Shown here in pieces: positions 2,987-32,756 of a stretch of 64,000 nt of DNA; positions within the stretch are counted from its first letter, which is position 1, and every line of letters starts with the position of its first letter. The DNA is from Escherichia coli (lineage in GTDB: Bacteria; Pseudomonadota; Gammaproteobacteria; Enterobacterales; Enterobacteriaceae): the NCBI RefSeq assembly GCF_030013205.1, contig NZ_CP122648.1, one strand, 5' to 3'. The position numbers were made by a program, and so were the translations under genes. The notes under the pieces were generated by a model. That model worked only from the letters and a program-made list of their open reading frames with translations. It made no database searches and was not told the DNA's origin.

Positions 2987-5017
2987 TCACTGTTGCCCAG
3001 CCCAGATGACCAGCACTTTATCGTCGCCATGCTCACGAACAAAGCCGTAGCCCTGCTTCATCGAAAGTGTCGTTTGTTTGCCCTCGCCAATTGCGGGATG
3101 GCGGGCGCGGAACTGGCTGATTTTCTGCCAGTGCGCGACGCTGGCGGCAGATTTACCGCTAACATCCTGCCAGTTCATATCCGAACGCGTACCTTGCAGC
3201 GGATCCGAACCGGTGGGGCCGAACGGACGCGAGGATTCATCACCATAAAAGATTTGTACCGCGCCTGGCGCTAATAATAATAACTCTGCTGCTTTGTCGC
3301 CCCCTTCACGGAACAGGCGGGTATCATGCGACGAGAGGTAGCTCAACACGTTGAAATCCTGCAATTTCTCCGCCATTTGCTGCCAGGTCGTATCCATCTG
3401 CGCCAGACAATCGACTGCTTTAGCCGCCTGCTCCTGATAATCGAAATTGATCATCGCATCGAAGCCGTGGCGATAGTAGTCACTTTGCATCACGCCGTGG
3501 CCCCAGGCTTCACCGGTCATCCAGAAAGGTTTGTCATCTAACGCTTTATCGGGGTTCGCTTTTTTCCATTCGCGAAGCGCGGCGCTGGCTTCGGTTTTCA
3601 GTTGCTGCCAGGCGGGCAACTCAACATGTTTGGCGGTGTCGACCCGAAAACCATCAATCCCATAGTCGCGGACCCACTGACTTAACCAGTGGGTTAAGTA
3701 ATCGCGAGGGGTAAAGCCGTCGATGACTTTAGCGTGGGTATCCGTTTTGTTTTTATAGAACACCGGCAGACCAGAAGCGGTCGTTGATTCGGTTTTGATA
3801 TCCGGCAAAAAGGCCAGCGACATAGTGAGATCGTCAAATCCAGGATTGTCGTAATCGCCGATATCGGTTCTGATCCAGTTTTTTCCCCACCATTTATCCC
3901 AGCCTGTTTTGTCGCTGAAATTAATGTAATCGTTAAAGCTATGCCAGGTTTGCCCGGCGGCAGGTTTCCAGTCACTCCAGCGTTCACCCAGCGTTTTTTT
4001 CAGCTCGTCACCAGAAAGATATAACGCGCCAAACTGATACTCCTGCATATCCGCCAGCGTGGCATAGCCGGTGTGGTTCATCACGACATCAAAGAGAATA
4101 CGAATACCGCGCTGATGCGCGCTATCAACCAGCGTCCGTAGATCGGCTTCACTGCCCATATTGGCATCAAGATTCGTCCAGTCCTGTGTGTAATAACCGT
4201 GGTAGGCATAATGCGGGAAATCACCTTTTGTACCGCCGCCGACCCAGCCGTGAATTTGCTCAAATGGGGCGCTTATCCATAAAGCATTAACGCCCAACTG
4301 CTGGAGGTAATCCAGTTTGTTGGTCAGGCCGCGTAAATCGCCGCCGTGAAAAGTGCCAATTTCTGCCATACCGTCTTTATGACGTCCGTAACTCTGGTCA
4401 TTACTGGGATCGCCGTTTTCGAAACGATCTGTCAGCACAAAGTAAACTGTGGCGTTATGCCAGTCAAAAGGGGCAGGGGCGTCAGTTTCTGCCCGTTCCA
4501 GCAGGAGTAAACCGTTGCTGGTGGCAGCGGGTTGTAACGTTATTTGACCGTTCTTCACTATCGCAATTTGCTGGCTGTAATAATCCCGTACGGCGGCTCC
4601 TTCCGGGAAAGTGGCGCTGACATCCAGTGTGAGCGGTAATCCATCCCATTTCGGGCATTCACGGACCAGGCTTGCTACCGGTTCGACGGCGTTCTGGATG
4701 GAAATCATCAATGTTGGTGTACCGGAGCGGGTGTCTAGTTGCAGCGTATATTCGCCGTCCCTGAACAATCGCCATTGAGGCGGCGTGTTGCTACAAGGTT
4801 GCAGGGAAAGCATCTGATTGAGTTTTATCGCATCCGCAGGCTGCCAGCACTGTTGGTCAAAATTTAGCGTTAGTGGACGCGTACCTTTGGGCAACTGTGC
4901 GTGGCTGACAAATGTTCCCGTCCCCTGTTCGCTAAAGGCGGGAAACCCCGGAGAAGTCCAGCTGGCGGCAACGGCGAAGCCAGGAAGGAGCGTCAGAAAA
5001 CAGGCGGCGAGTTTCAT
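2987..5017 (-). CDS. malS: Periplasmic alpha-amylase
   Basis: 676 aa with signal peptide MKLAACFLTLLPGFAVAA; glycoside hydrolase family 13 motifs; recognised MalS. Confidence 0.95.
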   Translation of the reverse strand: MKLAACFLTLLPGFAVAASWTSPGFPAFSEQGTGTFVSHAQLPKGTRPLTLNFDQQCWQPADAIKLNQMLSLQPCSNTPPQWRLFRDGEYTLQLDTRSGTPTLMISIQNAVEPVASLVRECPKWDGLPLTLDVSATFPEGAAVRDYYSQQIAIVKNGQITLQPAATSNGLLLLERAETDAPAPFDWHNATVYFVLTDRFENGDPSNDQSYGRHKDGMAEIGTFHGGDLRGLTNKLDYLQQLGVNALWISAPFEQIHGWVGGGTKGDFPHYAYHGYYTQDWTNLDANMGSEADLRTLVDSAHQRGIRILFDVVMNHTGYATLADMQEYQFGALYLSGDELKKTLGERWSDWKPAAGQTWHSFNDYINFSDKTGWDKWWGKNWIRTDIGDYDNPGFDDLTMSLAFLPDIKTESTTASGLPVFYKNKTDTHAKVIDGFTPRDYLTHWLSQWVRDYGIDGFRVDTAKHVELPAWQQLKTEASAALREWKKANPDKALDDKPFWMTGEAWGHGVMQSDYYRHGFDAMINFDYQEQAAKAVDCLAQMDTTWQQMAEKLQDFNVLSYLSSHDTRLFREGGDKAAELLLLAPGAVQIFYGDESSRPFGPTGSDPLQGTRSDMNWQDVSGKSAASVAHWQKISQFRARHPAIGEGKQTTLSMKQGYGFVREHGDDKVLVIWAGQQ

Positions 5018-14676: not shown

Positions 14677-15018
14677 ATGAAAACCTCAAAGACTGTGGCA
14701 AAAATATTATTTGTTGTCGGGGCGCTGGTTTATCTGCTTGGGCTATGGATCTCATGCCCATTGTTAAGTGGAAAAGGCTATTTTCTTGGCGTGTTAATGA
14801 CGGCAACTTTTGGCAACTATGCATATCTTCGCGCAGAAAAACTCGGGCAACTGGATGATTTTTTTACCCACATCTGCCAGTTAGTTGCGTTAATCACTAT
14901 CGGTCTCTTGTTTATCGGTGTTTTAAACGCACCTATCAATGCTTATGAAATGGTGATCTACCCTATCGCCTTTTTTGTCTGCTTGTTTGGTCAAATGCGT
15001 TTGTTTCGCCCGGCATGA
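14677..15018 (+). CDS. yiaB: Inner membrane protein YiaB
   Basis: ORF-track 14635..15018 trimmed to MKTSKTV (113 aa); paralogous to the next ORF. Confidence 0.8.
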   Translation: MKTSKTVAKILFVVGALVYLLGLWISCPLLSGKGYFLGVLMTATFGNYAYLRAEKLGQLDDFFTHICQLVALITIGLLFIGVLNAPINAYEMVIYPIAFFVCLFGQMRLFRPA

Positions 15019-15063
15019 GCAACATAAAGCTCTTACACATTCAGGAATGAAAGGAATACTGTG

Positions 15064-20427: not shown

Positions 20428-20580
20428 ATGCCGCAGAAATATAGATTACTTTCTTTAATAGTGATTTGTTGCACGCTTTTATTTTTCACCTGGATGATAA
20501 GAGATTCACTGTGTGAATTGCATATTAAACAGGGGAGTTATGAGCTGGCGGCATTTTTAGCCTGCAATTTGAAAGAGTAA
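20428..20580 (+). CDS. hokA: Hok-family type I toxin
   Basis: 50-aa ORF MPQKYRLLSLIVICCTLLFFTWMIRDSLCELHIKQGSYELAAFLACNLKE with an in-frame upstream extension in the ORF-track entry 20368..20580. Confidence 0.8.
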   Translation: MPQKYRLLSLIVICCTLLFFTWMIRDSLCELHIKQGSYELAAFLACNLKE

Positions 20581-20712
20581 GAGTCTTCGGCGGGAAGTTA
20601 TTCCCGCCTTTCTTACGGCGTTGCGCATTCTCATTGCACCCAAATTTATTTTTCACAAAAATAATAATAGATTTTATTACGCGATCGATTATTTATTTCC
20701 TGAAAAACAAAT

Positions 20713-23822: not shown

Positions 23823-24482
23823 TTACAGCGGGCTTAAGGTAATTTCTACACGGCGGTTTTGCGCCTTACCTTCTGCGGTGCTGTTGCTGGTGATTGGGTT
23901 AGCCGGGCCAAGGCCCTGAGTACGGATGCGGCTGGCGTCCACGCCCTGGGTGATCAACGCGCTGGCAACGGAATCCGCACGCTGCTGGGAGAGACGCATG
24001 TTCAGGTCGTGACCACCCGTGCTGTCGGTATAACCAATCACGTTAACCGCCGTTTTCGGATACTCTTTCAGCACCATTGCCACGCCGGTCAGGGTGTTAG
24101 CGCCCGCCGGTTTCAGGGTCGCGCTGCTGCTGTCGAAGGTCACATTGTTCGGCATATTGAGGATAATGTTATCCCCGCTGCGGGTTACGCTAACACCAGT
24201 GCCGCGCATTTTGTCACGTAGCTTCGCTTCCTGCACATCCATGTAATAACCCACGCCGCCGCCCAGAGCTGCGCCTGCTGCTGCGCCAATGAGCGCGCCT
24301 TTACCGCGATCTTTCTTCGAAGAAGAGAGCGCACCAATACCCGCGCCCACGAGAGAGCCCAGACCTGCGCCAATAGCAGATTTACCTGCTTCGCGTTCGC
24401 CGGTGTAAGGGTTAGTTGTGCAGCCAGATACCGCCAGAGCGCCACTCACTACTGCGGCAATAAGATAAACACGTTTCTTCAT
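23823..24482 (-). CDS. yiaD: OmpA-domain outer-membrane lipoprotein YiaD
   Basis: 219 aa; lipobox VSGC, glycine-zipper region and C-terminal OmpA-like domain. Confidence 0.9.
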   Translation of the reverse strand: MKKRVYLIAAVVSGALAVSGCTTNPYTGEREAGKSAIGAGLGSLVGAGIGALSSSKKDRGKGALIGAAAGAALGGGVGYYMDVQEAKLRDKMRGTGVSVTRSGDNIILNMPNNVTFDSSSATLKPAGANTLTGVAMVLKEYPKTAVNVIGYTDSTGGHDLNMRLSQQRADSVASALITQGVDASRIRTQGLGPANPITSNSTAEGKAQNRRVEITLSPL

Positions 24483-24634
24483 TGTTAATCCTTAATAACC
24501 TTTTTATTCTTTGCCACGGGTTCCGTGGCGGGAGATTATGCCGCGTGAACATGAAGATTATTCCTGGGAATACTCGGAAATTTGTAAGTAATATTTAACT
24601 GCTCAATACATCTAACCTTTCAGGAGTCTTCGGT

Positions 24635-26968
24635 TTGGCCAACTCATCCTCACGATATTCCGTTCTGACTGCCGCCCACTGGGGGCCCATGCTGGTTGAA
24701 ACTGACGGCGAAACCGTGCTTAGCTCGCGTGGCGCGTTAACCACAGGAATGGAAAACTCCTTGCAGAGCGCGGTTCGCGACCAGGTTCACAGCAATACGC
24801 GGGTACGATTTCCAATGGTGCGCAAAGGCTTTCTTGCGTCACCGGAAAAACCGCAAGGCATTCGCGGGCAGGATGAATTTGTTCGTGTGAGTTGGGATGA
24901 GGCGCTGGAGCTTATTCACCAACAACATAAACGCATTCGTGAGGCTTATGGTCCGGCATCGATTTTTGCTGGTTCCTACGGCTGGCGTTCAAACGGCGTG
25001 CTGCATAAGGCCTCGACATTATTACAACGCTATATGGCGCTGGCAGGCGGTTATACCGGGCATCTGGGGGATTATTCGACCGGTGCAGCACAGGCGATCA
25101 TGCCGTATGTCGTGGGGGGCAGCGAAGTTTATCAACAGCAAACCAGTTGGCCCCTGGTGCTGGAACATAGCGATGTCGTGGTGCTGTGGAGTGCTAATCC
25201 TCTCAATACGCTGAAAATTGCGTGGAATGCATCCGATGAGCAGGGGCTTTCTTACTTTTCCGCACTGCGTGACAGCGGGAAAAAGCTGATCTGCATTGAT
25301 CCAATGCGATCGGAAACCGTCGATTTCTTTGGCGATAAAATGGAGTGGGTGGCACCGCACATGGGCACCGATGTTGCGCTGATGCTGGGGATCGCCCATA
25401 CGCTGGTGGAAAATGGTTGGCACGACGAAGCGTTTCTGGCGCGTTGCACCACCGGTTATGCCGTCTTCGCCTCTTATTTGCTGGGCGAGAGTGACGGAAT
25501 AGCCAAAACCGCCGAATGGGCGGCAGGGATTTGTGGAGTTAACGCAGAGAAAATCCGCGAGCTGGCGGCTCTTTTCCACCAAAACACGACCATGCTGATG
25601 GCTGGCTGGGGAATGCAGCGTCAACAGTTTGGTGAGCAAAAACACTGGATGATCGTCACGCTGGCGGCAATGTTGGGGCAAATCGGCACACCCGGCGGCG
25701 GTTTTGGTCTTTCTTATCATTTTGCCAATGGTGGTAACCCCACGCGGCGTTCTGCGGTGCTCTCTTCCATGCAGGGCAGCTTGCCTGGCGGCACCGATGC
25801 GGTAGATAAAATCCCTGTTGCCCGCATTGTTGAAGCACTGGAAAACCCTGGTGGCGCATATCAACACAACGGTATGAACCGACATTTCCCGGATATTCGT
25901 TTTATCTGGTGGGCGGGCGGTGCCAACTTTACTCATCATCAGGATACCAATCGCCTGATCCGTGCCTGGCAAAAACCGGAGCTGGTGGTGATCTCTGAAT
26001 GCTTCTGGACGGCTGCGGCGAAACACGCGGATATCGTTCTGCCTGCGACTACCTCTTTTGAGCGTAATGATCTCACCATGACCGGTGATTACAGTAATCA
26101 GCATCTGGTGCCGATGAAACAAGTGGTGCCGCCACGTTATGAAGCGCGTAATGATTTTGATGTCTTTGCCGAGTTGAGTGAACGTTGGGAGAAGGGCGGC
26201 TATGCGCGGTTTACGGAAGGAAAAAGTGAGCTGCAATGGCTGGAAACGTTTTATAACGTTGCCCGGCAGCGCGGGGCAAGCCAGCAGGTTGAATTGTCGC
26301 CATTTGCTGAGTTCTGGGAAGCCAACCAGTTAATTGAGATGCCGGAAAACCCGGACAGTGAGCGGTTTATTCGCTTCGCCGATTTTCGCCGCGATCCGCA
26401 GGCGCATCCATTAAAAACCGCCAGCGGTAAGATTGAAATATTCTCGCAGCGTATTGCCGATTATGGTTACCAGGATTGCCCTGGGCATCCGATGTGGCTG
26501 GAGCCGGATGAGTGGCAGGGCAATGCCGAACCAGAACAGTTGCAGGTACTTTCTGCTCATCCGGCACATCGTCTGCACAGCCAGCTGAATTACAGTTCTC
26601 TGCGCGAATTGTACGCGGTGGCAAATCGTGAGCCTGTCACCATTCATCCTGACGATGCCCAGGCGCGCGGCATACAAGATGGCGATATTGTTCGGTTGTG
26701 GAACGCACGCGGGCAAATTCTTGCCGGAGCGGTCATTAGCGAGGGAATTAAACCTGGCGTGATTTGTATTCATGAAGGGGCATGGCCGGATCTGGATTTA
26801 ACCGCTGACGGTATTTGTAAAAACGGCGCGGTGAACGTTCTGACCAAAGATCTCCCCAGCTCGCGGCTGGGGAATGGCTGTGCGGGTAATACGGCACTGG
26901 CATGGCTGGAAAAATACAACGGTCCGGAACTGACACTTACAGCGTTTGAACCACCGGCCAGCTCATAA
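24635..26968 (+). CDS. bisC: Biotin sulfoxide reductase (molybdopterin oxidoreductase)
   Basis: 777 aa; molybdopterin family; recognised BisC; start codon choice uncertain. Confidence 0.92.
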
Positions 26969-27377
26969 TCCAGGTGGGTAGTTGGGTTTCATCCTGCCAT
27001 GCGCAGTCGACAATGTGAAAACCCTGCGCATGGTAAAAATCTATCGCCGGTTGATTTTTTTGATAAACCTCCAGCATCAGATGGGGATGGCGCTGCTGCA
27101 CATACTGCATTAGCGCCTTACCAATACCGCGTCTGACGGCCTTCGGTGCGACAAACATTGCAGCCAGAAATCGGCCTTCCATAATGCTGACAAAACCGAG
27201 AAGCTTACCGTCTTCTTCCCAGACCCAGTTTTGCGCGTTGGCAAGATAGGCATCCCGCACCAGCGGAATGCAATCACGCCAGTAATTCGCTTTTATAAAG
27301 GGATGCCCCCAGGTTGTACTTTCCAGCCACAGTTCGAGGATCGCGGGGAGTTCTGAACGTTGCGCTTCCCGAATCAT
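26937..27377 (-). CDS. yiaC: GNAT-family N-acetyltransferase YiaC
   Basis: 146 aa; GNAT motif RRGIGKALM; converges on and overlaps the bisC 3' end. Confidence 0.88.
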
Positions 27378-27937
27378 GGTTTATTTCCCGGATAGCAACA
27401 GCAGCCAACCACATGATCATTCACCAGCCCACATGCCTGCATAAAGGAGTAACAGATTGTGGTACCAACAAACTTAAAACCACGCTTTTTCAGGGCTTTA
27501 GATAGAGCGTCGGAGGCGGGCGTAGATGTAGGGATTTCGCTCAACGTTGTGGCTTGTGTCACCTGTGGTTGATGATTGACAAACGACCAGACAAAGTCGG
27601 CAAACGGTTCGCCGTTCTGTTCCATTTGCAGGTACGCCCGCGCATTACCAATAATTGCCTGAATTTTCCCGCGATGGCGGATAATCCCGGCGTACTGTAC
27701 CAGTCTTTCGACATCCTCTTCCTGCATTGCAGCCACCTTCACCGGATCGAACTGATGAAAGCTGGCGCGATAGTTTTCGCGTTTTTTGAGGACGGTGATC
27801 CACGATAATCCAGCCTGCTGCCCTTCAAGGCAGATCATTTCGAACAGTTTTTTACTGTCAGTTTCAGGCACGCCCCACTCATTATCATGGTAGGCAATAT
27901 AAAGCGGGTCCTGACTCACCCAGCCGCAACGTTCCAT
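27374..27937 (-). CDS. tag: DNA-3-methyladenine glycosylase I
   Basis: ORF-track 27374..28174 trimmed to MERCGWVSQDP (187 aa); 4-bp overlap with yiaC. Confidence 0.93.
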   Translation of the reverse strand: MERCGWVSQDPLYIAYHDNEWGVPETDSKKLFEMICLEGQQAGLSWITVLKKRENYRASFHQFDPVKVAAMQEEDVERLVQYAGIIRHRGKIQAIIGNARAYLQMEQNGEPFADFVWSFVNHQPQVTQATTLSEIPTSTPASDALSKALKKRGFKFVGTTICYSFMQACGLVNDHVVGCCCYPGNKP

Positions 27938-28094
27938 ACTTTCCCTCGCTATGTACCCGATCGTAAAAATTTCAGCCGCTTTTCTTGACGCATCGGTTAA
28001 AAAGTCAATATTTAATACAGGGCTACTATGCCCGATATCCTTCATACAATGACAATAATATTGCCGAATTCGGCTCTTCCCTGGAGTCGTGTTA

Positions 28095-28793
28095 ATGATC
28101 ATAAAAAAAAGCGGTGGTCGCTGGCAGCTAAGCCTGCTGGCGAGTGTGGTAATCAGTGCCTTTTTTCTCAACACAGCTTACGCCTGGCAACAAGAATATA
28201 TCGTTGATACGCAACCCGGACATTCCACAGAGCGTTACACCTGGGATAGTGACCATCAACCTGATTACAACGATATTTTGTCGCAACGTATTCAAAGTAG
28301 CCAAAGGGCGCTGGGACTGGAAGTCAATCTGGCGGAAGAAACTCCTGTGGATGTGACCAGCAGTATGAGTATGGGCTGGAATTTTCCTTTATATGAGCAG
28401 GTTACAACCGGCCCGGTCGCGGCATTACATTACGATGGCACAACCACCTCGATGTATAACGAGTTTGGCGACAGTACTACCACGCTGGCCGATCCGTTAT
28501 GGCATGCCAGCGTGAGTACCTTAGGCTGGCGTGTTGACTCCCGGCTTGGCGATCTCCGACCCTGGGCGCAAATCAGCTATAACCAGCAATTTGGCGAGAA
28601 TATCTGGAAGGCGCAATCAGGCCTGAGCCGGATGACGGCGACAAACCAGAACGGCAACTGGCTGGATGTCACCGTAGGCGCTGATATGTTGCTCAATCAA
28701 AATATTGCTGCCTATGCTGCGCTATCTCAGGCAGAAAATACCACTAACAATAGCGACTATCTGTATACGATGGGGGTTAGTGCCAGATTTTAA
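28095..28793 (+). CDS. yhjY: YhjY, autotransporter beta-domain-like outer membrane protein
   Basis: About 232 aa, signal peptide, C-terminal ...TMGVSARF beta-barrel ending. Confidence 0.8.
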   Translation: MIIKKSGGRWQLSLLASVVISAFFLNTAYAWQQEYIVDTQPGHSTERYTWDSDHQPDYNDILSQRIQSSQRALGLEVNLAEETPVDVTSSMSMGWNFPLYEQVTTGPVAALHYDGTTTSMYNEFGDSTTTLADPLWHASVSTLGWRVDSRLGDLRPWAQISYNQQFGENIWKAQSGLSRMTATNQNGNWLDVTVGADMLLNQNIAAYAALSQAENTTNNSDYLYTMGVSARF

Positions 28794-28907
28794 CGTTATA
28801 GATACAATTGAAACCATTGGATAACAACAGTTGTGGCGATAGTGGGTGCTAACTTACTAAATAATAAATTTGGTGAATAATTGTCGAGTCATTCATTCCT
28901 GAACTAA

Positions 28908-28938
28908 TGCATTTCATTCCGTTCTGATGGCATTTCAT
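28908..28938 (+). promoter_or_regulatory. Direct repeats TGCATTTCAT / GGCATTTCAT (11-bp spacer), candidate YpdB response-regulator site of the yhjX promoter
   Basis: Two 10-bp direct repeats 21 bp apart, about 85 bp upstream of the yhjX start; matches my memory of the YpdB motif. Confidence 0.55.
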
Positions 28939-29021
28939 GCCGTTTTTCCCCAGGCATAAAGTGCACTTCGTTATGGTTGTCAGCAGAGATTTTTCCTTTT
29001 TATTACTGCAGGAATACTGCC

Positions 29022-32336: not shown

Positions 32337-32756
<420 letters not shown>

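Follow-up and report, generated by a model that had tools for sequence, protein, structure and literature searches.

The convergently transcribed genes bisC and yiaC share 32 bp at their 3' ends in a 64,000-nt stretch of Escherichia coli DNA (referred to as a whole as the window), and the arrangement is probably an ordinary, ancient and passively maintained tail-to-tail overlap of two real genes. The gene coordinates, the conservation of the overlap, the asymmetry of the constraint acting on it, the structural end of YiaC and the lack of an intrinsic terminator motif are results of the present analysis; the Rho-dependent region, the transcript overlap and the polycistronic nature of tag-yiaC come from published work; the passive (non-regulatory) nature of the overlap is what we infer. 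Against a passive reading, a selected regulatory function could likewise explain why the overlap is kept in at least nine genera.

Gene layout and conservation of the overlap

The 32-bp overlap described in an earlier note is borne out by open reading frame coordinates, by the raw sequence and by the annotation of two further genomes; the 4-bp ATGA overlap between tag and yiaC described alongside it is equally present, and is annotated in the same two genomes. NCBI PGAP coordinates for the three genes are identical in strain K_EC180 (100% identical), and the RefSeq record of K-12 MG1655 has the same arrangement (yiaC 3713652..3714092, bisC 3714061..3716394, tag 3713092..3713655). Both overlaps were already known: they stand in the reference annotation, the 4 nt shared by tag and yiaC appear in the YiaC literature, and the bisC/yiaC pair is included in a 2025 catalogue of transcript overlaps. 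That bisC and yiaC are bona fide protein-coding genes is evident from Pfam matches (GNAT in YiaC; Molybdopterin and Molydop_binding in BisC), from orthologues in at least nine genera and from the published enzymology of YiaC (PMC6199490, PMC9636275). The TTG start of bisC is preceded by a CAGGAG Shine-Dalgarno sequence (24621-24626) and is kept across genera.

Table 1. Features of the bisC/yiaC/tag region (window coordinates)
Feature	Position	Strand	Description
bisC CDS	24635..26968	+	Biotin sulfoxide reductase, 777 aa; TTG start; TAA stop 26966-26968, inside yiaC on the opposite strand
yiaC CDS	26937..27377	-	GNAT lysine acetyltransferase/lactylase, 146 aa; ATG 27377-27375; TAA (complement 'tta') 26937-26939, inside bisC on the opposite strand (ORF list and raw sequence)
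tag CDS	27374..27937	-	3-methyladenine DNA glycosylase I, 187 aa; TGA stop 27376-27374
bisC/yiaC convergent CDS overlap	26937..26968	both	32 bp, phase 123:132
Overlap head	26958..26968		yiaC nt 410-420; constrained by both genes
Overlap tail	26937..26957		yiaC nt 421-441; BisC LTAF(D/E)PP, conserved; YiaC residues 141-146 and stop, unconstrained
Hairpin (26852-26874) and weak U-tract UCUUUGGU	26842..26874	- (yiaC-sense)	Candidate weak terminator or 3'-end structure
Untranslated C>G stretch of tag-yiaC transcript	26657..26936	-	Antisense to bisC; C/G 1.26-1.92
ATGA, tag TGA sharing bases with yiaC ATG	27374..27377	-	From sequence; published in PMC6199490
Weak Shine-Dalgarno-like GGGA	27386..27389	-	8 nt upstream of yiaC ATG, inside tag

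Conservation across species, which the earlier note had proposed as a check, is complete among the loci compared. The bisC stop falls at yiaC nt 410-412 in all 15 loci, drawn from at least nine genera of Enterobacteriaceae (Escherichia spp., Salmonella, Citrobacter, Raoultella, Enterobacter, Kosakonia, Lelliottia, Pseudescherichia and one further genus), and the overlap measures 32 bp in 13 of them and 38 bp in the remaining two. Five Escherichia loci were obtained by scanning contigs with the YiaC protein; those of other genera were reached through homologous proteins and the contigs that encode them. Within E. coli, 5,420 of 5,426 complete genomes carry a 211-bp segment spanning the junction (at least 95% identity). 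YiaC homologues are mostly 146 or 148 aa long, and 143-aa variants also occur among cluster representatives.

These observations bear on the possibility that the overlap is an artefact of a sequencing frameshift or a mis-called stop in either gene. A few singleton database proteins carry long read-through tails, indicating that such errors or variants exist elsewhere, and we found no other support for it. Against it stand the same arrangement in K-12, in the 100%-identical strain, in 5,420 genomes and, with the same stop positions, in at least nine genera; the prevalence of 146 and 148 aa among YiaC homologues; and the C-terminus of BisC, which coincides with that of its structurally characterised homologues. 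An artefact, which the earlier note had named as the finding that would overturn its reading, is thus ruled out for practical purposes.

The phase of the overlap (123:132) places yiaC codon position 1 opposite bisC position 1, position 2 opposite 3, and position 3 opposite 2. Convergent coding overlaps in E. coli number 75 (PMC4161906) or 58 (PMC2174442), and phase 123:132 is the commonest among short ones (PMC4161906, PMC2174442): in phase and length the bisC/yiaC overlap is therefore of the commonest type among the 58-75. Like other convergent pairs in this phase (PMC2174442, PMC4161906) it joins bona fide genes that share tens of 3' bases, sets the wobble base of each gene opposite the second base of its partner, has its extent set by stop-codon position and is kept among related genomes. 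There is no essential difference; what bisC/yiaC adds is constraint dominated by bisC and an apparently disordered six-residue run-on of YiaC. The locus illustrates asymmetric constraint in a 123:132 convergent overlap with textbook clarity. In the window, two of 11 convergent junctions overlap. In 2002 Rogozin et al. reportedly described prokaryotic gene pairs whose convergent (tail-to-tail) overlap is conserved.

Constraint on the shared bases

Variability in the overlap tail follows bisC. Variable columns by bisC codon position 1, 2 and 3 are 0/7, 0/7 and 7/7 in the tail, and 12/40, 6/40 and 39/40 in the adjacent bisC-only region (indel-free nt 442-561): the tail displays the normal codon pattern of bisC. 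(A Raoultella locus carries a one-codon indel within nt 442-681.) Read in the yiaC frame, the pattern is reversed relative to upstream sequence, with codon position 3 variable in 0/7 tail columns vs. 33/36 upstream (Fisher P = 4e-6) and codon position 2 variable in 7/7 vs. 9/36 (P = 4e-4). In the overlap head, which codes both for YiaC I137-M138-x-W140 (the end of the last beta strand) and for BisC Ala775-x-x-stop, the bisC wobble bases that face YiaC M138 and W140 are invariant. Judged from these sequence comparisons, the evolution of the overlap appears to be wholly explained by protein-coding constraint, chiefly that of bisC.

The tail of BisC aligns with Rhodobacter DorA (DMSO reductase) as far as residue 820 of 823, and with TMAO reductase as far as residue 809 of 813; since the alignment with the Rhodobacter enzyme reaches almost to its C-terminus, the BisC tail is taken to be ancestral. 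For YiaC, the AF2 model (mean pLDDT 95) assigns the last strand to residues 133-140, with mean pLDDT falling to 60 over residues 141-146: the predicted fold ends at W140, and the six residues that follow, modelled with low confidence, appear to run on without constraint. The Pfam domain models cover neither of the overlapped tails. The length of the YiaC tail is nevertheless not wholly free, because the rare Leu codon CTT/CTC, which keeps the yiaC stop, is found in seven of nine genus-level lineages, whereas bisC codon usage would predict 26% (binomial P = 0.002); yiaC therefore places some constraint on bisC.

These data suggest how the overlap would be maintained passively. The 3' end of bisC, held by purifying selection, encodes a C-terminal tail that is ancestral in the DMSO-reductase family. 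W140, where the YiaC fold ends, lies 11 nt in from the bisC 3' end, and the yiaC frame continues for six codons through bisC antisense until halted by the first in-frame stop – a TAA furnished by the complement of conserved bisC Leu-Thr codons (CTT-ACN). Where that stop is lost through a change synonymous in bisC, yiaC instead runs on for eight codons. The constrained regions of the two genes abut, so that the genes cannot be separated without duplicating the shared bases; it is for this reason, we suggest, that the arrangement is frozen across Enterobacteriaceae.

Transcript ends and the question of regulation

Because there is no intergenic space, each transcript must enter the partner gene. 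The antisense overlap of the bisC and yiaC mRNAs, a further claim of the earlier note, is implied by the overlap of the coding sequences and fits both the entry for yiaC-bisC in a set of 165 convergent transcript overlaps from MG1655 (ExcludonFinder, PMC12288877) and a Rho-dependent region reported downstream of yiaC (PMC7815308). That region, antisense to bisC and ~252 nt beyond the yiaC stop, has a score of 7.3 (P = 5e-14; PMC7815308 supplementary file 2), although the data derive from 800-nt windows with low read counts. Its position, MG1655 3,714,344 on the + strand, corresponds to ~26685 in the window, assuming no indels in the coordinate transfer. Transcription in the tag-yiaC sense covers ~250 nt of bisC antisense and goes beyond this if Rho is inhibited (PMC7815308). 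As in Rho termination of untranslated or antisense RNA (PMC7815308), C-rich untranslated RNA past the yiaC stop is followed ~250 nt on by a BCM-sensitive region; the signal here differs in being of low resolution, and it could stem from an independent antisense promoter inside bisC instead of read-through from tag-yiaC. Under the passive reading, the tag-yiaC RNA is untranslated past the yiaC stop and would be ended mainly by Rho after a few hundred nucleotides of bisC antisense; for bisC, too, Rho or polymerase collision would presumably stop transcription, inside yiaC/tag antisense. Peters et al. reportedly described Rho-dependent termination of untranslated or antisense RNA in 2012.

Intrinsic termination fits the junction less well. 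No bidirectional intrinsic terminator (a GC-rich hairpin with A-tract and U-tract, acting on both strands) is found at the bisC/yiaC junction, and on the bisC-sense (+) strand no terminator-like site occurs in 24300-28400, nor at the junction itself. A 10-bp perfect inverted repeat, CCATGCGCAG...CTGCGCATGG (26998-27034, +), ~30 nt past the bisC stop, was considered as a terminator of bisC and rejected: no U-tract follows it, and in K-12 the repeat is broken (CCAGGCACAG). On the yiaC-sense strand a hairpin lies 63 nt beyond the yiaC stop, inside the bisC codons for DLPSSRLG, and could in principle be an intrinsic terminator of tag-yiaC that forces the tight packing. Its GC-rich stem of 9 bp (dG about -16 kcal/mol) precedes UCUUUGGU, and the hairpin persists in E. 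coli, Enterobacter, Lelliottia and C23F. Predicted intrinsic terminators lie inside the partner for ~20% of the genes that take part in convergent overlaps in E. coli (PMC2174442). However, the U-tract is weak and on one strand only; the stem codes for a conserved BisC peptide, so that conservation of the hairpin is confounded; Kosakonia, Pseudescherichia, Raoultella and Salmonella have lost or altered the fold; no Term-seq 3' end maps to it, and Rho-dependent read-through is found further downstream (PMC7815308). That an embedded terminator explains the packing is thus highly improbable. An Rfam scan of 24000-29000 at E<=1 returned no match.

bisC and tag-yiaC might form a functional excludon, in which complementary 3' ends lead to mutual antagonism because polymerases collide, RNase III cleaves the duplex, or both, the arrangement being conserved for that reason. 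The pair does belong to the MG1655 'excludome', defined by overlap in at least 50% of 58 transcriptomes (PMC12288877), transcript overlap is obligatory given that the coding sequences overlap, the tag-yiaC-sense RNA extends into bisC antisense, more so with Rho inhibited (PMC7815308), and all 15 loci keep the arrangement. Yet the ExcludonFinder listing is automatic from the coding overlap and says nothing of an effect on expression, while coding constraint and the difficulty of un-overlapping the genes suffice to explain conservation. Moreover, a structured or recognised RNA element predicts extra conservation, whereas the bisC wobble sites of the 21-nt tail vary in 7 of 7 cases. Term-seq 3' ends for tag, yiaC and bisC are absent from the data of Adams et al. 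2021 (PMC7815308), which also counts against the idea, although low expression may explain this. Like excludons (PMC12288877), the pair consists of oppositely oriented neighbours with overlapping transcripts, and it is explicitly listed for MG1655; it differs in that the overlap is obligatory from the coding sequences rather than produced by long UTRs. The pair is placed among excludons by its overlapping transcripts, whereas the marks of a regulatory excludon are mutually exclusive expression and processing by RNase III. A functional excludon is, on balance, unlikely. Still less likely is a selected antagonistic switch, in which tag-yiaC transcription into bisC antisense tunes BisC (or the reverse) and is kept across Enterobacteriaceae for that purpose; were it true, it would link DNA alkylation repair and a lysine acetyl/lactyl-transferase to a biotin/methionine sulfoxide reductase that repairs oxidised metabolites. 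The earlier suggestion of transcriptional interference or antisense regulation is without support: coding constraint accounts for the sequence, and no Rfam family matches. YiaC, the lysine acetyl/lactyl-transferase, is reported to rise under oxidative stress.

The tag/yiaC junction and manipulation of the locus

The genes tag and yiaC are polycistronic with a stated 4-nt overlap (PMC6199490). They are co-transcribed, with yiaC probably translated from its own Shine-Dalgarno sequence inside tag, and termination-reinitiation at the ATGA may aid yiaC translation in E. coli. As in other ATGA operon overlaps, the tag TGA and the yiaC ATG share bases in co-oriented genes reported to be polycistronic (PMC6199490); the difference is that only some Escherichia have the 4-bp form. 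Among the 15 loci the ATGA junction is not conserved across orthologous operons: the overlap is 4 bp in E. coli, E. albertii and two other Escherichia loci, 1 bp in E. whittamii and E1V33, 20 bp in Kosakonia and 23 bp in seven other genera, and in most other genera GGAGG replaces GGGA. Given these different overlaps and the stronger GGAGG, termination-reinitiation coupling is not a conserved requirement. Of the 'ATGA-type coupling' proposed earlier, the stop/start overlap therefore stands and coupling is plausible, but as a feature restricted to some Escherichia. At the same junction, a hairpin on the bisC-sense strand (~27339-27376; dG -14, then UGGUUUAUUU) is not conserved, since it is encoded by the poorly conserved N-terminus of YiaC.

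The locus matters little for discovery. In practice, a deletion or a tag at the 3' end of either gene, bisC or yiaC, changes the other. C-terminal tags on YiaC would replace a presumably dispensable tail, while changes to the BisC tail touch a conserved feature of the family. In the engineered RefSeq strain BE104 the last 40 nt of bisC are kept, and yiaC is thereby intact.

Gene boundaries and their conservation

The earlier note held that bisC (biotin sulfoxide reductase) and yiaC (GNAT lysine acetyltransferase/lactylase) share 32 bp tail to tail, and that yiaC overlaps tag (3-methyladenine DNA glycosylase I) by 4 bp (ATGA): both overlaps are borne out by the ORFs, the raw sequence and the annotation of two genomes. 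K_EC180 (NZ_CP062203) is 100% identical over the 3.7 kb around bisC-yiaC-tag, a region found in 5,419 of 5,426 complete E. coli genomes, and its PGAP coordinates are exactly those read here for the three genes; the K-12 MG1655 reference (tag 3713092..3713655, yiaC 3713652..3714092, bisC 3714061..3716394) has the same relationships. Both overlaps, being already in the reference annotation, are known: all that we add is that the overlap is invariant across genera and that its constraint is clearly asymmetric, as described below.

Features of the bisC-yiaC-tag region (window positions)
Feature	Position	Strand	Details
bisC	24635..26968	+	777 aa; TTG start; TAA stop 26966-26968 (ORF list and raw sequence)
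yiaC	26937..27377	-	146 aa (ORF list and raw sequence)
tag 3' end	27376-27374	-	TGA (ORF list and raw sequence)
bisC/yiaC shared bases	26937..26968	convergent	32 bp
tag/yiaC shared bases	27374..27377	-	ATGA
Zone 1 of overlap	26968-26958		yiaC nt 410-420; YiaC I137-M138-x-W140; last three BisC codons and stop
Zone 2 of overlap	26957-26937		yiaC nt 421-441; BisC LTAF(D/E)PP; YiaC 141-146
GC-rich hairpin, weak U-tract	26874-26852	- (yiaC-sense)	inside bisC codons for DLPSSRLG

Conservation was examined at two scales. Within E. coli, 5,420 of the 5,426 complete genomes carry the 211-bp junction (identity ≥95%); the one clear exception inspected, BE104 (NZ_CP040643; positions 3417-3500 of the extracted locus), carries an engineered bisC deletion whose Datsenko-Wanner FRT scar leaves the sequence from the final 40 nt of bisC into yiaC intact. 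For the wider comparison, five further Escherichia loci came from a YiaC contig scan, and a protein search plus eight contig look-ups brought in Salmonella, Citrobacter, Raoultella/Enterobacteriaceae, Enterobacter, Kosakonia, Lelliottia, Pseudescherichia and one further Enterobacteriaceae genus. The order tag, yiaC, convergent bisC is found in all 15 loci, as is a bisC stop at yiaC nt 410-412. The last nucleotide of yiaC is nt 441 in 13 of the 15; for Kosakonia and Lelliottia it is nt 447. The overlap, whose conservation across species the earlier note had proposed to check, is thus 32 or 38 bp throughout. Among database cluster representatives the YiaC tail past the PTWIM motif is mostly 13 or 15 residues long and occasionally 10, with rare singleton read-through tails.

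The bisC start codon is preceded by a CAGGAG Shine-Dalgarno sequence (window 24621-24637). Both start and Shine-Dalgarno occupy the corresponding place in most of the genera examined, where automatic gene callers picked different starts, giving proteins of 759-804 aa.

An overlap of this kind is not unusual. E. coli has 75 convergent pairs among 663 overlapping adjacent pairs (PMC4161906), or 58 convergent overlaps by another count (PMC2174442), and two of the 11 convergent junctions in the window overlap (bisC/yiaC, and hokA with a 23-aa ORF). The bisC/yiaC phase is 123:132 (yiaC codon position 1 against bisC position 1, 2 against 3, 3 against 2), which is the commonest convergent phase in E. 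coli (46% observed vs 39% expected from simple stop-codon mutation) and also in general for overlaps below about 50 bp (PMC2174442). The pair is a typical member of the conserved convergent overlapping genes of this phase, and does not belong with bidirectional-terminator junctions.

Asymmetric constraint within the overlap

A per-column table of variation divides the overlap into two zones. In zone 1 the bisC wobble bases facing M138 and W140 never vary, and a TAA/TGA switch in the bisC stop is a synonymous ATT/ATC (Ile) change in yiaC. In zone 2 all seven variable columns are bisC third positions and none of the 14 first and second positions varies, so that the BisC sequence is kept; in the adjacent 40 bisC-only codons 12, 6 and 39 of 40 columns vary at positions 1, 2 and 3, respectively. 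Zone 2 is therefore a normal bisC coding pattern. Read from the yiaC side it is inverted: 0/7 third positions vary vs 33/36 upstream (P=4e-6), and 7/7 second positions vs 9/36 (P=4e-4). Since second positions vary while third positions are fixed, YiaC 141-146 drifts freely (PVVQTL, QADQTP, QAGQTP, PADQTL and others).

Independent evidence on the protein ends fits this division. The BisC tail can be aligned to Rhodobacter DMSO reductase up to residue 820 of 823 and to a TMAO reductase up to residue 809 of 813, which makes it an ancestral trait of the family rather than an extension. In the AlphaFold2 model of YiaC (mean pLDDT 95) the last beta strand ends at residue 140 and residues 141-146 have no secondary structure (mean pLDDT 60); conservation in a 64-sequence alignment extends through W136, M138 and W140. 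Pfam domain models exclude both overlapped tails.

Complementing the Leu-Thr codons of bisC (CTT-ACN) gives NGT-AAG, which supplies the yiaC stop. A CTC Leu codon yields TGA in Enterobacter; CTG abolishes the stop in Kosakonia and Lelliottia, where a backup TAA comes from the next 'LT', two codons further. Stop-compatible Leu codons occur in seven of nine genus-level lineages, which are not fully independent, whereas bisC codon usage predicts 26% (P=0.002): a hint suggesting that weak selection may act against further yiaC run-on.

Judged from these constraint patterns, the best explanation is a passive overlap, which needs no regulatory function. The constrained ends of BisC and YiaC would abut, interpenetrating by 11 nt, and yiaC would then run through the conserved ancestral bisC tail to the first antisense stop. 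Because separating the genes would need duplication of the shared bases, the arrangement would be frozen; in practice, neither 3' end can be manipulated without affecting the other gene.

Transcription across the junction

The earlier note had raised transcriptional interference or antisense regulation as a possibility. Since the coding sequences overlap, co-expression of bisC and yiaC in one cell necessarily gives overlapping transcripts, and the antisense overlap deduced there is real: on the yiaC side it exceeds 32 nt, given a Rho termination region classed as antisense to bisC (MG1655 3,714,344, + strand; Rho score 7.3, P=5e-14; Adams et al. 2021, PMC7815308, supplementary file 2). This region lies 252 nt beyond the yiaC stop (about window 26685, - strand), and the intervening RNA has more C than G (C/G 1.26-1.92), as expected for Rho loading on untranslated RNA. 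The same dataset contains zero Term-seq 3' ends for tag, yiaC and bisC and zero Rho regions antisense to yiaC or tag, which may reflect low expression. ExcludonFinder places yiaC-bisC among 165 convergent overlaps found in at least half of 58 MG1655 transcriptomes (PMC12288877); because overlap of coding sequences yields such a listing automatically, it is not evidence of an effect, and the pair is an excludon in the descriptive sense only, the defining features of an excludon being regulatory. Nothing shows interference or regulation by the overlap.

As to terminators, the GC-rich hairpin is kept in several genera, not all, and its retention is confounded with coding conservation. The bisC-sense strand has no intrinsic-terminator motif for at least 1.4 kb, and Rfam gave no match within 24000-29000. 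A perfect 10-bp inverted repeat, CCATGCGCAG / CTGCGCATGG (26998-27034, +), within yiaC just past the bisC stop, was rejected as a bisC terminator: no U-tract follows, and the repeat is disrupted in K-12.

The tag/yiaC junction and other features of the window

The 4-nt tag/yiaC overlap and polycistronic arrangement were given in the YiaC paper (PMC6199490). The junction (window 27374-27400) differs between lineages: ATGA is found in E. coli, E. albertii and two further Escherichia loci, and a 1-bp TAATG overlap in E. whittamii and Escherichia sp. E1V33; in Kosakonia 20 bp are shared, and in the seven remaining genera 23 bp. In Escherichia the stretch from the Tag Cys-cluster codons to the yiaC ATG is one nucleotide longer, and the resulting frame shift leaves Tag with 186-187 aa instead of 193. 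In every locus yiaC has a Shine-Dalgarno sequence upstream, within tag (GGAGG in most genera, weakened by the same change to GGGA in E. coli). Judged from sequence, tag-yiaC translational coupling is plausible, in a form not conserved across genera.

Elsewhere in the window, hokA (+, 20428-20628) overlaps the opposite-strand 23-aa hypothetical ORF by 24 bp; ysaE-hokA is likewise on the ExcludonFinder list (PMC12288877). At 87-1435 lies a transposase of IS1397 (IS3 family) that has a programmed frameshift, and yiaB (14679-15019) carries a frameshifted-pseudogene annotation in this strain. A tRNA-Pro with two RtT sRNA repeats after it spans about 32337-32749, and three tandem Ldr type I toxin genes about 40839-41912. 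bcsG (-) and bcsC (+), at about 41999-45882, abut and are annotated as partial pseudogenes with missing N-termini, which indicates that rearrangement or deletion took most of the bcs cellulose-synthesis region in this strain.
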